Shown: positions 14,014-17,000 of the stretch, in pieces
Layout of the letters: each line of letters begins with the position of its first letter
Numbering within the stretch: position 1 is the first letter of the stretch
DNA from: Chthonomonas calidirosea
Lineage (GTDB): Bacteria; Armatimonadota; Fimbriimonadia; Fimbriimonadales; Fimbriimonadaceae
Direction of reading: 5' to 3'
Assembly: GCA_945859975.1 (NCBI GenBank)
Contig: CAMAPH010000007.1
Location: forward strand, 1 to 64,000
Length of the DNA stretch: 64,000 bases
Made by a program: the position numbers

Positions 14014-17000
14014 TAAGATTTCTTAGTGAGCTTCGGCCCCCTTGCCTTTTTGGCGAGGGGGCCGTTTTTGTTATTGCTTTTTTTCGGGGAGAACGGTTAC
14101 CGATAGGCTGTCTCGTCGCGGTTCCCGCGCCAAGAGCGGACCTCGATACGGTCCCAGTCCGCGAGCGAGAATGGAATCCCGTCTTCTTCCACGGGGCCGC
14201 CTGCGATGACCTTGCCATCGCGAAAGCACACGCCGCAGCGGACCTCTTCCTCGAAGAACCTTCCGAGGAACTTGAATGCCTCGGTTGCTATGTCTTCCCA
14301 GATGAAGTCGAAAAAGTATCCGCCGTGCCAGAAAAGTTGAAGAGTTCCGCCTAGCTCGACAGTAAGGGGCGTGTGAATCGTGGGATGCTCGGACGGGATG
14401 TGCAGTCTTGGGTGGACGGTCTCGAAAGGAATTTCGGAGGCGCGGCCTGCCTCCAGACCCTCCTCCCACTCGGGATGCTCCGCAAGCAATCGAAGCAGAA
14501 GGGTCCTACCTGCATCGTCGTAGACCTCAATCATCGTTCCGCTCAGGCGATGGACCGAAGGCAGAATCAGTTTCGAGCGAAGCGTTTAACTCCATTTTTG
14601 TTATTGCTTCGCGTACTTTTTCTCGGCCCGGGCGAAGAGTTCGAGGGTGAACTCGGTGACCGGGAAGCCGCGGTCGTTGCCGAACGGCTTCGGGTTACCG
14701 ATTCCGAGGTTTGAGAGCATGATCACGGAAAGGCCGGTGTCGAAGTTCCTTGCGATCGCGGTGCCGGTGTGTCCGGTGTGGAACCCGGTTCGTCCACCAC
14801 CGCTTTTCACGACGGTCCAGCCCGCCGCGTACGGGACGGCTGAATTCGGGAGCTTGCCACTGTTTGTGAGGAAAGGCGTCATCGCTCGCTCCCAGGTGGC
14901 GGGGACAAGAAGTTTGCGCTGGGCGATTCCGGTTTCCCACTTGGCAAGATCGTCGACGGTCGAATACAAGCCACCAAAAGCGTTGAAATCGAACGAGCCC
15001 ATTGCTTCGGCAATGCTCCAACGAGCGAACTTGTTATCGCGGATGGTGTATTGATCGGCGAGCATCGGAACGACGACAGAGCGATTGATAAACCCGGATG
15101 AGGTCATGCCGAGCGGGGTGAGGATGCGGCGCTCGACCTGCTCGGGGAACGGCGCTCCACCCGCGGCTTCGATGACGTGGCCGAGGAGTTGGTAGCCGAC
15201 GTTGCTGTACTGAAACTTGGTCCCCGCTGGGAAGGCAGGAGTCATTTTGAAGGTGTCTTCAAGCTGTTGTGCCCGCGTGTACGGGAAAAAGGAGAGCGAG
15301 CTGTAGCGCGGCGGAACAACGGCGAATTCGGGCAGTCCGGCCGAGTGATTCATCAGGTGCTGAACCTGGACATTCGCCCAAGCGGCGGGTGCCGATGGGA
15401 AGAATTTTGACAGCGGATCTTCGAGGGCGAGCTTCTTATCGTCCACGAGCATGAGGGCGAGGACGGCGGCGAACTGCTTGCTGACGCTTGCGAGTTCGAA
15501 CTTGGTTTCACGGCGAACCGGGACCTGCCATTGGATGTTGGCGACGCCAGCGTTCACCTGCTTTACGACCTTTCCGTTTTGCACGACGGCAATCGCCACA
15601 CCGGGAATTTGGTACTTCTTGACCGCGTTCTTCACCGCATCGTCGATGGCGTCCGCCGCGCCGATGCTGGTTAGGGCGAGGGTGAGGCAGAGCGCGGGAA
15701 TTCGGTGTCGCTTCATGACCGTATCGTATCCGCAAAGGCACAGCGGCGTAAAGAAGAGCGTGAACCTTTGGGTGTCGGTTGTTCGACAAATCTGAGGAAA
15801 GCCAAAAGTTCCGACGCGTCTAATGCGAAAGGAACAACCCTTTCGGCTACCATGGAGATCGGAGGCAAATGATGAGCAACGCAGAACTAGGAAAAGTAGC
15901 AAGCACCGGAAAGATCGTCGAATCGGAATTCATTCGGGTGGTGTATCAGCAAGGGCTTCCGCAAACCGTCGGCGTGAACGGTTGCCGCGTGGAGGACGTG
16001 ATTGCCGTGGCCATGGCCCGGTTGGACGACTATCAGAACGGACTTCTCGCCTGTGAGGAGAACGAAGAAGCAATCACCTTCCTACGAAAAGCGACTCGCT
16101 CGCTGGAAGATCGCCGACGACGCCGAATGGAACAGGGCGTGTTCAACACGATGTCTCGACACGTGATCGTGCGGACCGAAGATGAGCACGAAGACTTCTC
16201 CGCCACTGGCGCCTGAGTTCATTTCGGGTGCCTAAAGGCCCAATCTAACGGGCCTAAGCCCCGTTTCCGAAAAATTTCGCATAAAACATTACACGCCCGG
16301 CACAAAGCCGACTTTGAGATGCGTATAGTGCGCATCTTTGGTTCAAGGGAACAAATGATGTTGAAGCGAACACTGTATGCGCGATTCCTCTCGGCAAGTC
16401 TCGGACTGTCCGTTCTGCCCGCCTTTGCTGGGCAAGACCCCAGCCTCAACCTCCAGTACGCCATTCCGGCGGCAGAAGAAGTTTCGATCCTAGAATCTCT
16501 TCCGAGTTCCGACTCAGAAGATCAGGTCAAGCAGTCGGTTAGCGTTCGGTTTACGAATGCGAAGGCGAAAGAAGTCTTCGGTTGGCTGCAAAAGAAGAAC
16601 GTCAACTTCGTGGTTGATGATTCGCAGCTGCCGGCCAACAAGACCATCACGTTGAACTTGCAGAACCAGGCGATGGAAGATGTTCTGGAAGCCATTGGAT
16701 CGGCGCTTGGCGGACGATTCGAAAAGCGGAAGGGCATTTACGTTTATCAGTCCGGAGACAGCCGAATGCTGCTGACGGAGATGAAGGCTCTTGACTCAAC
16801 CCGCATGGCTCTGCCTCGAATGCGAATCGAGACGCTTCCATCGCGACCAATGTCGCCGGAAGAAAAGAAGAAGTTCGACGCTTCGATGAAGAAATTCGAA
16901 GCGGAGATGAAGCAGTTCGGCGAAAAGATGGAGAAGAGCTTTGGGCCAGAGTTCGAGAAGCAGTTCAACTCGAAAGAAATGGAGCTAAAGCTGAACAAGG

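Follow-up and report, generated by a model that had tools for sequence, protein, structure and literature searches.

The Tad1-like gene and its neighbors

In the window (that is, the whole stretch of 64,000 nucleotides analyzed here), a short gene at 15872-16216 encodes a 114-aa protein that is clearly a homolog of the phage protein Tad1. The gene and its nearest features are as follows.

15861..15865, forward strand: GGAGG ribosome-binding site read from the sequence, 6 nt ahead of the ATG at 15872
15872..16216, forward strand: Tad1-like gene, 114 codons plus stop, with an alternative ATG at 15869
16319..17359, forward strand: STN/FecR_C-like gene (Pfam), 346 aa, K- and E-rich, with an apparent N-terminal signal peptide by eye
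17423..17800, forward strand: DUF423 membrane protein (Pfam), a frequent neighbor (16/80 loci)

The open reading frame is real: GGAGG lies upstream, and codon usage is host-like according to a score for which 11 Pfam-confirmed genes of the window served as the training set, and which was also used to call ORFs around the other loci. One copy is present in the genome. The surroundings agreed with those given in the genome-wide survey's note, namely a beta-lactamase-fold gene on the reverse strand, the STN/FecR_C-like, DUF423 and M14 peptidase genes on the forward strand, and groES/groEL upstream. A promoter and terminator scan of 15650-16450 gave nothing usable. Two studies of freshwater metatranscriptomes provide contigs covering 15870-16181 and 15873-16097 at ∼95% identity; of the 14 differences, 12 are in the third position of a codon (manual count). 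These contigs give a weak hint of expression, DNA carry-over in the libraries being possible. The adjoining beta-lactamase gene was without such cover, uncovered parts carrying no meaning, and none of the RNA contigs spans the Tad1-like gene together with a neighbor.

The homology reported earlier was recovered. A search of the PDB with the single sequence gave PhiKZ gp184 (8y6v, 5e-8) as the best match, followed by CmTad1 (8kbb, 6.6e-6), whereas a 40-member profile matched 8kbb at 6.6e-16, 8y6v at 1.6e-14 and the CbTad1 entries at ∼3e-11. The closest PHROG family was phrog_2428 (3.4e-17). With regard to the 31 database relatives described as 54-72% identical, the length range (109-148 aa) was reproduced, but the 31 include the query itself, leaving 30 relatives at 56-72% identity. 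Twenty-one longer relatives were without any informative extra Pfam domain.

The Pfam result requires some care in reading. The protein does not reach the gathering cut-off (27 bits) of PF24729 (Acb2_Tad1_hairpin), as had been noted; it in fact gave no hmmscan match to Pfam even at E<=10. When PF24729.2 was run against the genome, the Tad1-like gene was not matched and just a spurious 13.7-bit match on another contig was obtained. Whether the family is called thus varies with the version of the model: PF24729.2 misses the gene, while PF24729.3 is the precomputed label on 29 of the 31 database proteins listed. The proposed link to Acb2 could be traced only to the name of this Pfam family. Both fold and sequence searches returned only Tad1 entries, and no Acb2 structure appeared in the PDB profile search at E<=0.01 or among the Foldseek PDB matches listed.

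Fold, ligand pocket and C-terminal tail

The AF2 model of the protein (mean pLDDT 77) comprises strands 14-18 and 21-25 and helices 40-55 and 62-87, which is the Tad1 order of beta-strands followed by two long C-terminal helices, with a shortened N-terminal sheet. All 13 PDB matches listed by Foldseek at E<=1e-3 are Tad1 chains, the best with a TM score of 0.61 and an rmsd of 1.8 A over 77 columns. The top BFVD matches of the model were phage Acb2/Tad1-hairpin proteins, and an ESM Atlas search gave the Acb2/Tad1-hairpin label again (scores 0.91-0.92). The parts of the protein discussed below are located as follows.

15911..15946, forward strand: residues 14-25, two short strands in the AF2 model, inside the predicted dimer interface (residues 16, 18-25)
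15989..16132, forward strand: residues 40-87, hairpin formed by helices 40-55 and 62-87, the segment aligning with Tad1 structures
16031..16033, forward strand: Y54, aligned with CbTad1 F82 (gcADPR/cyclic-dinucleotide pocket); Y or F in the genus, F or H elsewhere
16055..16057, forward strand: E62, at the position of the cyclic-trinucleotide Arg (CmTad1 R88, CbTad1 R90), variable across the family
16061..16063, forward strand: N64, invariant, aligned with CbTad1 N92 (pocket)
16112..16126, forward strand: R81 to R85, both arginines invariant and aligned with CbTad1 R109 and R113 (pocket)
16160..16162, forward strand: H97, invariant across the order, past the C-terminus of the solved Tad1 chains
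16172..16213, forward strand: residues 101-114, tail RTEDEHEDFSATGA, motif RTEDxxx[DE]FSATG[AS], essentially in one genus

The protein has no more than about two thirds of the Tad1 fold. Residues 14-25 are all that is left of the N-terminal beta-sheet, and ∼21 residues precede the hairpin, compared with ∼47 in CmTad1. Prediction of self-association with four copies gave an ipSAE of 0.82 (best control 0.00), a pass of the calibrated mark (reached by 20 of 30 pair-solved and 1 of 23 single-chain-solved proteins) that may reflect likeness to known structures, Tad1 dimers being already solved. At least 67% of contacts agreed between the four-copy runs, with a partner pLDDT of at least 69. Thus, a Tad1-like symmetric dimer is predicted to be kept. 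The predicted interface includes residues 63-64 and 80-81, and Y54 and R85 are absent from its confidently placed residues. In the same four-copy model, the tail and the contacts between dimers fall below confident placement and give no evidence either way.

A comparison of ligand-binding residues, which the earlier note lacked, was carried out on the basis of CbTad1, in which mutation of F82, N92, R109 or R113 abolishes gcADPR binding (bioRxiv 10.1101/2023.11.15.567273). These four positions align with Y/F54, N64, R81 and R85, of which the last three are the same in every one of the 40 members, taken from across the order. Judged by alignment, the residues of the gcADPR/cyclic-dinucleotide pocket therefore appear to be retained. 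The cyclic-trinucleotide site (CmTad1 R88/T95, CbTad1 R90/T97) aligns with E62 and T69, both of which vary within the clade. Among the 137 cluster representatives that are nearest outside the clade, just 38 have Arg at the E62 position. In addition, the CmTad1 hexamer-interface residues Q98, E99, M102, W103 and K106 align with R72, K73, R76, S77 and D80. Since the trinucleotide-site residues are variable and the hexamer-interface residues are replaced, the sponge architecture of six plus two sites may be gone.

Conservation elsewhere in the protein was less exceptional than had been proposed. Taken across the order, the 40-member alignment contains 15 invariant columns rather than 30, and most of the core residues listed as invariant belong to the general Tad1 signature, also being found in the 137 outside representatives. 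His occupies the H97 position in 89 of these. R39 is characteristic of the host clade, with Q or T in outside relatives. The acidic tail, described as invariant and family-specific, turned out to be confined essentially to one genus (g1), and proteins of other genera stop 5-10 residues past H97. One genome of genus g7 (G033) also aligns in length through to query residue 114 and may carry it. The motif was found in 25 of 80 loci, and its amino acids are fixed although all synonymous codons are in use (for example, six codons for R101 and four for G113).

Two possible roles of the tail were considered separately. The motif occurs once among the 34,202 open frames of the genome, which rules out a shared C-terminal signal. 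A tail serving a neighboring M61-PDZ peptidase was weakened by the genome itself, which has the tail and no M61 match with the query used.

Chromosomal setting, distribution and selection

To date, Tad1 has been a phage matter: in a published survey, nearly 100% of detectable homologs are placed in prophages (PMC11724313), which agrees with the suggestion that the present setting is new. We analyzed 20 annotated loci (±8 kb), whose 98 neighboring ORFs belong to housekeeping families alone; genes for an integrase, terminase, capsid, portal or tail protein are not among them. The setting was chromosomal housekeeping in all 20 loci, rather than the phage or prophage location of Tad1, and the flanks in these loci were free of such phage genes, a cryptic prophage around relatives having been a concern. 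A defense gene was adjacent in none of them. Among 80 loci, synteny and locus types were conserved within each clade, the STN/FecR_C-like gene being the most persistent downstream neighbor (16/80). Searching 2.9 million viral contigs revealed no relative with the motif of the host clade, and all phage relatives (171 records) were below 60% identity.

Of the 228 order genomes, 141 were found to carry the gene, mostly as a single copy. In the genus it is present in 43 of 45 genomes. By family, the counts are 127 of 174 for f1 and 13 of 20 for f2, and the gene is absent from f3 (0/29), f4 (0/3) and f5 (0/1). Thus, the Pfam-based counts given previously (27/45, 97/174 and 108/227 for genus, family and order, respectively) were too low, and conservation is not order-wide, the gene being confined to two of the order's five families. 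Only one weak match was found among the sampled genomes of the phylum outside the order. As 87 of the 228 order genomes are without the gene, it is dispensable.

The Tad1-like gene is under purifying selection (median dN/dS 0.23). Together with the 20 of 20 housekeeping loci and the clade-wise synteny, this agrees with the earlier view of a gene kept by the host outside any prophage. Phylogenetic resolution was limited. In a FastTree analysis of 190 sequences and 82 columns, the host clade did not form one supported branch (support 0.0-0.14), and an AU test did not reject its monophyly (p-AU 0.52). Monophyly of the host clade is therefore compatible with the data, and not more than that.

Interpretation and comparison with known systems

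The explanation that we prefer is that a phage-type Tad1 would have turned into an ordinary chromosomal gene, passed on vertically, where two Fimbriimonadales families have their base. On this account the protein retains the Tad1 helical hairpin, a predicted Tad1-like symmetric dimer and all four gcADPR/cyclic-dinucleotide residues at the putative dimer-interface pocket; little of the N-terminal sheet would be left, and neither the cyclic-trinucleotide site nor the hexamer-interface residues would have been preserved. One genus would have gained the strongly selected acidic C-terminal tail, which may act as a lid over the basic pocket or as a docking peptide. Because hairpin, predicted dimer and the four pocket residues are kept, the protein is most likely still a binder, and not a degrader, of some small ADP-ribose-derived or cyclic-dinucleotide-like molecule. 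As for the kind of ligand, TIR and CBASS genes are scattered among genomes in which the Tad1-like gene itself is core, and this makes a nucleotide of the cell (housekeeping or stress) likelier than a signal of its own Thoeris or CBASS. Taken as a whole, this reading would make the protein a domesticated binder of nucleotides that works as a dimer and serves the cell itself; the function is inferred, and our judgment on the reading is about evenly divided.

It might be argued that the gene is prophage or mobile-element cargo, a cryptic anti-defense gene that merely looks chromosomal, as all characterized relatives are phage proteins and the nearest PHROG family points in the same direction. This idea is already contradicted by the housekeeping context of 20/20 loci and the clade-conserved locus types, by presence in 43 of 45 genus genomes, mostly in single copy and with a dN/dS of ∼0.2, and by the viral contigs, none of whose relatives carries the clade's motif, host-clade monophyly not being rejected either; we regard it as hardly tenable. 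A use within host immunity deserves somewhat more attention. A host sponge might take up leaky gcADPR or cyclic oligonucleotide and so determine the signal level at which Thoeris or CBASS fires, like Crn2 for type III CRISPR. The conserved pocket residues would fit such a self-limiting buffer, TIR_2 is present in 86 of 228 order genomes, and hosts have co-opted viral signal-removing proteins before, as described for AcrIII-1/Crn2 in the survey cited above (PMC11724313). However, the Tad1-like gene is core and the signaling genes are accessory, and TIR_2 is as common in non-carriers (29/87) as in carriers (57/141). SMODS was found in 18 of 141 carriers and 4 of 87 non-carriers, a weak and non-significant enrichment (p=0.06) among related genomes that are not independent. 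The genome studied here (95.8% complete) has no TIR_2, SMODS or ThsB_TIR, and all three are missing from 71 of the 141 carriers. With half of the carriers lacking these genes, and with no defense gene adjoining any annotated locus (0/20), the protein is unlikely to act in Thoeris or CBASS of the cell itself, and we consider the buffer quite improbable. No candidate ligand producer emerged from the search, which covered TIR_2, ThsB_TIR and SMODS, with type III CRISPR, Pycsar and other TIR families outside its range.

A stronger competitor would be re-use of the Tad1 fold without nucleotide binding, as a small dimeric adaptor or regulator working through protein contacts, with the tail of genus g1 as a docking peptide and possibly tied to the recurrent peptidases. 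It would account for a tail fixed in amino acids while every synonymous codon is used, and for the loss of the trinucleotide site and hexamer residues. The tail also ends in T-G-A, which we take to resemble a PDZ-type C-terminal ligand, and an M61 peptidase with a weak PDZ_2 match (22.2 bits, below the 27-bit cut-off) is a tandem neighbor in 9 of 80 loci, other peptidase neighbors being M14 (9/80), M3 (2/80) and M28-PDZ (3/80 loci and 6/20 annotated loci). Nevertheless, it is precisely the residues of the Tad1 ligand pocket that stay invariant across the order, a pattern difficult to account for if no ligand were bound. The tail lies outside the confident interface, its motif is found nowhere else in the genome, and this genome combines the tail with no M61 homolog (query used). 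Peptidases are moreover common among all scanned neighbors (∼8/98, manual count), so that adjacency may be chance. We judge the adaptor to be rather unlikely.

Returning to the preferred reading of a domesticated nucleotide binder, its bolder form would be that Fimbriimonadales captured a phage sponge and now use it to sense or buffer a messenger of their own, an ADP-ribose-derived or cyclic nucleotide new to bacteria outside immunity, with the genus-specific acidic tail as a built-in pseudo-ligand lid making release controllable. We find this extension doubtful; if it held, the protein could serve as bait for that messenger, just as gcADPR was identified with Tad1. Tad1, Tad2 and Acb2 are regarded as purely viral counter-defense tools. 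A core chromosomal Tad1 clade that has lasted while two bacterial families diversified, and that keeps the pocket residues where the matching immune systems are missing, points to a cellular use of the sponge fold. The clade also offers a natural experiment on which sponge parts (most of the N-terminal sheet, the trinucleotide site and the hexamer contacts) are dispensable. The 114-aa protein is a concrete and easily expressed means to seek the ligand. A literature search did not find a host clade of a sponge family.

Among known systems, the closest is Tad1 itself (CmTad1, PDB 8KBB-D; CbTad1, 7UAV/7UAW and 8KBE-H; SBSphiJ7 Tad1), with which the protein shares the family by profile and fold, as well as the helical hairpin, the GxNG loop, the four pocket residues and the symmetric dimer (predicted here). 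In contrast with Tad1, which is a phage or prophage gene, the gene described here is a chromosomal core gene; its product has a shortened N-terminal sheet and E62 in place of the trinucleotide Arg, does not keep the hexamer-interface residues, and shows the clade-typical R39 and, in one genus, the 14-residue acidic tail. PhiKZ gp184, a jumbo-phage Tad1 (PDB 8Y6V chain I, matched over residues 23-95), has in common with it the C-E-E-N motif and a Glu at the trinucleotide-Arg position. However, gp184 is a protein of 230 aa, whose N-terminus is wedged into the capsid and whose C-terminal Tad1 part is described as released and injected (PMC11297242; bioRxiv 10.1101/2025.11.23.690004), whereas the protein here is a free-standing cellular one of 114 aa. 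Acb2 (anti-CBASS 2) is also a phage nucleotide sponge and shares the Pfam name Acb2_Tad1_hairpin, but its relation to the 114-aa protein is remote at best. Finally, Apyc1, NARP1/2 and Crn2 versus AcrIII-1 illustrate, as described in PMC11724313, how one family can serve both phage counter-defense and host physiology or regulation; these are enzymes, unlike the Tad1 sponge family.

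Genomic context, selection and expression of the Tad1-like gene

The Tad1-like gene and its closest features in the window are as follows.

14601-15902, minus strand: beta-lactamase-fold gene, longest ORF (433 aa), overlapping the start of the Tad1-like gene
15861-15865, plus strand: GGAGG, 6 nt ahead of the 15872 ATG, read from the sequence
15872-16216, plus strand: Tad1-like gene, 114 codons, by ORF reading
16319-17359, plus strand: 346-aa STN/FecR_C-like protein; domain weak (26.8 bits, just below the cut-off)

An alternative in-frame ATG lies 3 nt 5' of the 15872 ATG. The codon-usage score of the ORF, trained on 11 Pfam-confirmed genes in the window, was similar to those of its neighbours, and the gene is single-copy in its own genome (101 contigs, 95.8% complete). 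Upstream is the divergent beta-lactamase-fold gene, whose true start is probably at 15716, giving a 155-bp divergent intergenic region, because its Pfam domain begins ∼24 residues past the internal Met at 15716 and a signal-like sequence follows that Met. The downstream same-strand run consists of the 346-aa STN/FecR_C-like protein, DUF423 and an M14 peptidase, and the wider flanks contain groES/groEL, dapD, an aminotransferase, GNAT, an M42 peptidase, dapA and cmk. By eye, the 346-aa protein has an apparent N-terminal signal peptide; its long C-terminal half is K/E-rich and repetitive. Two other minus-strand ORFs, 14097-14534 (145 aa) and 10173-10832 (219 aa), have host-like codon scores and no Pfam family.

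The median dN/dS in the genus was 0.23 (Nei-Gojobori, codon alignment; 176 pairs after exclusion of those with dS outside 0.05-2.5, the median dS of 1.76 being near saturation), with values of 0.21 for residues 22-97 and 0.61 for the N-terminal 21 residues. Among other genera it was 0.18 (23 pairs). Logan contigs of four freshwater/lake metatranscriptome runs could be aligned to 14600-17800. Two of these runs, from two studies, cover the Tad1-like gene (15870-16181 and 15873-16097, ∼95% identity). The longer contig differs at 14 sites, 12 of which are third codon positions. None of the four runs covers the upstream beta-lactamase gene. These contigs hint weakly that a close relative transcribes the gene, although the RNA libraries may have contained DNA.

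Distribution and genomic setting in Fimbriimonadales

A six-frame search of 228 species-level genomes of the order identified the Tad1-like gene in 141 of them, and in 112 of the 170 genomes with completeness of 90% or more and contamination of 5% or less (the tallies count the unpublished genome G011 as one carrier; none of its sequence was used). Carriers made up 43 of 45 genomes in the genus of the window genome, 127 of 174 in its family (f1) and 13 of 20 in a second family (f2), and none was found in the other three families (0/29, 0/3 and 0/1). The genome-wide survey's note had described an order-wide, host-maintained gene; host maintenance stands, but only two families carry the gene. 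In 401 genomes sampled across the phylum, a profile search revealed 43 carriers, 42 of them in f1 or f2; the remaining match was weak (3e-17) and lay at a contig end, its genome being 8% contaminated. Identity to the window protein drops with taxonomic distance, from 52-100% in the genus to 40-57% outside. The gene is mostly single-copy across the order. Genomes of one genus, g50 (G182 and G185 at loci L041-L044, and others), have two paralogues at two loci, each conserved, one after a GH38 mannosidase and the other near an isocitrate-dehydrogenase-like gene and dapA. Only two genomes of the window's genus had no match, G060 and G068 (the latter 96% complete), with three and seven TIR_2 matches, respectively, a pair too small to support any interpretation.

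In a named copy of the same collection, 80 loci were labelled Fimbriimonas, Fimbriimonadaceae, Fimbriimonadales or Armatimonadota. Other labels were a few 'bacterium', three Chthonomonas, one Methanoregulaceae archaeon and one Synechococcus; contigs with the last three names (L117, L127, L087, L089 and L090) are probably mis-binned or mis-named Fimbriimonadales contigs.

We analyzed the ±8 kb context of 20 family genes from 18 genomes (5 from the window's genus, 10 from other f1 genera and 5 from f2), calling neighbour ORFs by codon score and scanning 98 of them, each standing for one cluster and lying no more than about four genes away from the Tad1-like gene. No phage hallmarks were found among these 98 ORFs, which include L21/L27, UvrB, GatB, MutL, RuvC, PlsX/FabH, RNase J, Tgt, HisRS, isocitrate dehydrogenase and PurB/PurD as well as many peptidases. 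This supports the earlier statement that the gene is not in a prophage. Its context is variable between clades and conserved inside each, and the STN-like gene was the most persistent downstream neighbour.

Neighbours of the Tad1-like gene at 80 loci of ±6 kb (tblastn at 1e-8; same species set as the order survey; many loci end at contig ends)
STN-like gene, downstream: 16 (3 of these outside the genus)
DUF423: 16
M42: 10
M61 peptidase, immediately downstream: 9
M14, immediately upstream (f2-type): 9
GH38 mannosidase, immediately upstream: 9
S8: 7
M3 oligopeptidase: 2

The M61 peptidase, a glycyl-aminopeptidase with a weak PDZ_2 match, starts 20-40 bp 3' of the Tad1-like gene in many members of the genus (L031:8340-10085; the nine loci fall within L051-L130). 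The window's genome had no match to the M61 query used, yet the C-terminal tail is kept there. M14, M3, M28-PDZ, S8 and M42 peptidases recur beside the gene in other clades, which may be chance in a peptidase-rich lineage. In addition, the f2 genome G016 has two genes of the Pup-ligase family (PafA/Dop type) ∼4 kb away from its Tad1-like gene (L049, 1965-4667); pupylation genes are therefore present in the lineage.

Fold, ligand-site residues and C-terminal tail

Pfam hmmscan of the window protein gave no match even at E<=10. PF24729 version.2 (58 positions) misses the whole host clade, that is, the Fimbriimonadales Tad1-like proteins, and most of the 150 nearest relatives; only one of 21 tested scored (24.7 bits). 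'Tad1/Acb2' gene counts based on this version will be too low because of these misses. Three PHROGs families of unknown function match the protein (top phrog_2428, 3.4e-17). Against PDB sequences, the single sequence matched PhiKZ gp184 (8y6v, 5e-8) and CmTad1 (8kbb, 6.6e-6), and a profile of 40 family members matched CmTad1 (6.6e-16), gp184 (1.6e-14) and CbTad1 entries (∼3e-11), with no others at E<=0.01. The AF2 model, built on the family alignment (mean pLDDT 77), contains short strands (14-18 and 21-25) and long helices (40-55 and 62-87), residues 1-11 and the tail being of low confidence. Foldseek returned 13 PDB matches at E<=1e-3, Tad1 chains throughout among the matches listed, led by CmTad1 (TM 0.61, rmsd 1.8 Å, 77 columns). 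BFVD matches were phage 'Acb2/Tad1 hairpin' proteins, and no Acb2 structure appeared among the PDB-sequence, BFVD or listed Foldseek matches.

Four copies folded with the family alignment gave an ipSAE of 0.82 vs 0.00 for the best of three controls, with contact agreement of at least 67% between runs and partner pLDDT of at least 69; in calibration, 20 of 30 proteins with a solved pair structure reached this mark, as did 1 of 23 with a single-chain structure, counts that are only roughly valid here. The confidently predicted interface is a symmetric pair involving residues 16-25, 37-51 and 61-84, and the tail was not confidently placed in this model. Since Tad1 dimers exist in PDB, the pass may reflect memory of known structures, and the predicted dimer would indicate likeness to Tad1, not binding.

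The ligand-binding residues, which had not been compared in the earlier work, were now matched by numbering offsets from HMMER alignments to Tad1 structures. According to Li et al. (bioRxiv 10.1101/2023.11.15.567273), the gcADPR/cyclic-dinucleotide pocket lies at the dimer interface (CbTad1 F82, N92, R109 and R113). The interface within the trimer of dimers harbours the cyclic-trinucleotide site (CmTad1 R88 and T95, equal to CbTad1 R90 and T97), where C87, A91 and M92 contact bases; hexamer contacts are CmTad1 Q98, E99, M102, W103 and K106.

Ligand-site residues of characterised Tad1 proteins and their counterparts in the window protein
CbTad1 F82: Y54; aromatic in the clade, H in two members
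CbTad1 N92: N64; invariant
CbTad1 R109: R81; invariant
CbTad1 R113: R85; invariant
Trinucleotide Arg: E62; clade-variable (E/Q/A/P/R/S/K/D and others)
Trinucleotide Thr: T69; variable
A91, M92: E65, E66
Hexamer residues: R72, K73, R76, S77, D80

Invariant columns in 40 members of at least 18 genera were Q26, G28, G34, N36, G37, V43, Q55, C61, E63, N64, A67, A74, R81, R85 and H97. On alignment evidence, the conservation of the pocket columns points to retention of the gcADPR/dinucleotide pocket in the host clade; the trinucleotide site is not kept. Most of the invariant residues are not peculiar to this clade: Q, G, G, N, G, F, Q, C, E, N, R and R were near-universal in its 137 nearest cluster representatives outside, 89 of which have H97 and only 38 Arg at position 62. 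R39 is typical of the host clade, with Q or T at that position outside.

The tail motif RTEDxxx[DE]FSATG[AS] (residues 101-114, in the genus) had been considered family-specific and invariant. It turned out to be essentially genus-specific: it was found at 25 of 80 loci, and proteins of other genera end 5-10 residues past H97. In G033, a genome of another genus (g7), the alignment reaches residue 114, the tail being read from alignment extent, not letters. Among 31 distinct genus sequences, R101, E103, D104, F109, S110, T112 and G113 were unchanging, with up to six synonymous codons, and in the window's genome the motif occurs once among 34,202 open frames with 50 or more codons. We guess that the tail could cover the Arg-rich pocket as a lid or serve as a docking peptide.

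Origin, immune signalling and comparison with known Tad1 proteins

A profile search against 1.84 billion cluster representatives revealed 5,052 at E<=1e-3, of which 1,833 reach 1e-10 and 9 reach 1e-30. The 13 best-scoring ones (113-180 bits) are separate from a long continuum beginning at ∼103 bits, and eight of them have the tail; one, an Armatimonadota protein on a 1.36-Mb contig, has a 120-residue N-terminal extension. In a FastTree phylogeny (190 rows, 82 columns), the genus clade (support 0.80) was placed beside a clade of other genera (0.94), their union being unsupported. An AU test on 80 thinned rows (20 of 40 host rows, 16 of 19 inner representatives and one row in three from the remainder) did not reject one clade of 33 rows (p-AU 0.52; constrained tree 2 log-likelihood units better), a group named after sight of the first tree. 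The data are thus compatible with one capture event at the base of f1 and f2 but do not prove it, as the union lacks support and the tree is unrooted. We infer that phage to host is the simpler direction of transfer, because members of the host clade occur only in two families within a single order and the whole Tad1 family is large and known from phages. A tblastn search of 50,697 phage records matched 171 (phages of Bacillus, Pseudomonas, Vibrio and others), all below 60% identity and at 33-41% among the matches listed. The clade's signature motif gave 39 pattern matches and no relative in 2.9 million viral contigs, within the limited reach of a pattern.

The protein is unlikely to act in Thoeris or CBASS of its own cell. 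TIR_2, ThsB_TIR and SMODS were present in 86, 34 and 22 of the 228 order genomes, respectively, and none of them in the window's own genome; G041, whose copy is 99% identical to the window's, does have ThsB_TIR. TIR_2 occurred in 57 of 141 carriers vs 29 of 87 non-carriers (odds ratio 1.36, p=0.33) and SMODS in 18 of 141 vs 4 of 87 (p=0.06), p-values that overstate the evidence because related genomes are not independent. All three families were absent in 71 of 141 carriers (19 of 44 in the genus). Judged by these three families, the Tad1-like gene has the distribution of a core gene, and the signalling genes have that of accessory genes. Binding of a small nucleotide would be the best-supported mechanism for the window protein, since it is exactly the pocket residues that are conserved.

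The best-ranked full-text matches (few subscription papers, bioRxiv supplements such as Tad1 trees lying outside) contained no report tying Tad1 to the Fimbriimonadales lineage or describing a host-kept Tad1 clade. The claim of a host-maintained Tad1 homologue in a new setting holds. PhiKZ's own Tad1, gp184, is described in two reports as having its N-terminus within the capsid, its C-terminal part being released and injected (PMC11297242; bioRxiv 10.1101/2025.11.23.690004), and the 1,587 homologues of Hadary et al. came from a viral database only (bioRxiv 10.1101/2025.08.24.671296). According to AntiDefenseFinder (PMC11724313), nearly 100% of Tad1 homologues in bacterial genomes sit in prophages, whereas Apyc1, NARP1/2 and Crn2, by contrast with Tad1, do have cellular counterparts.
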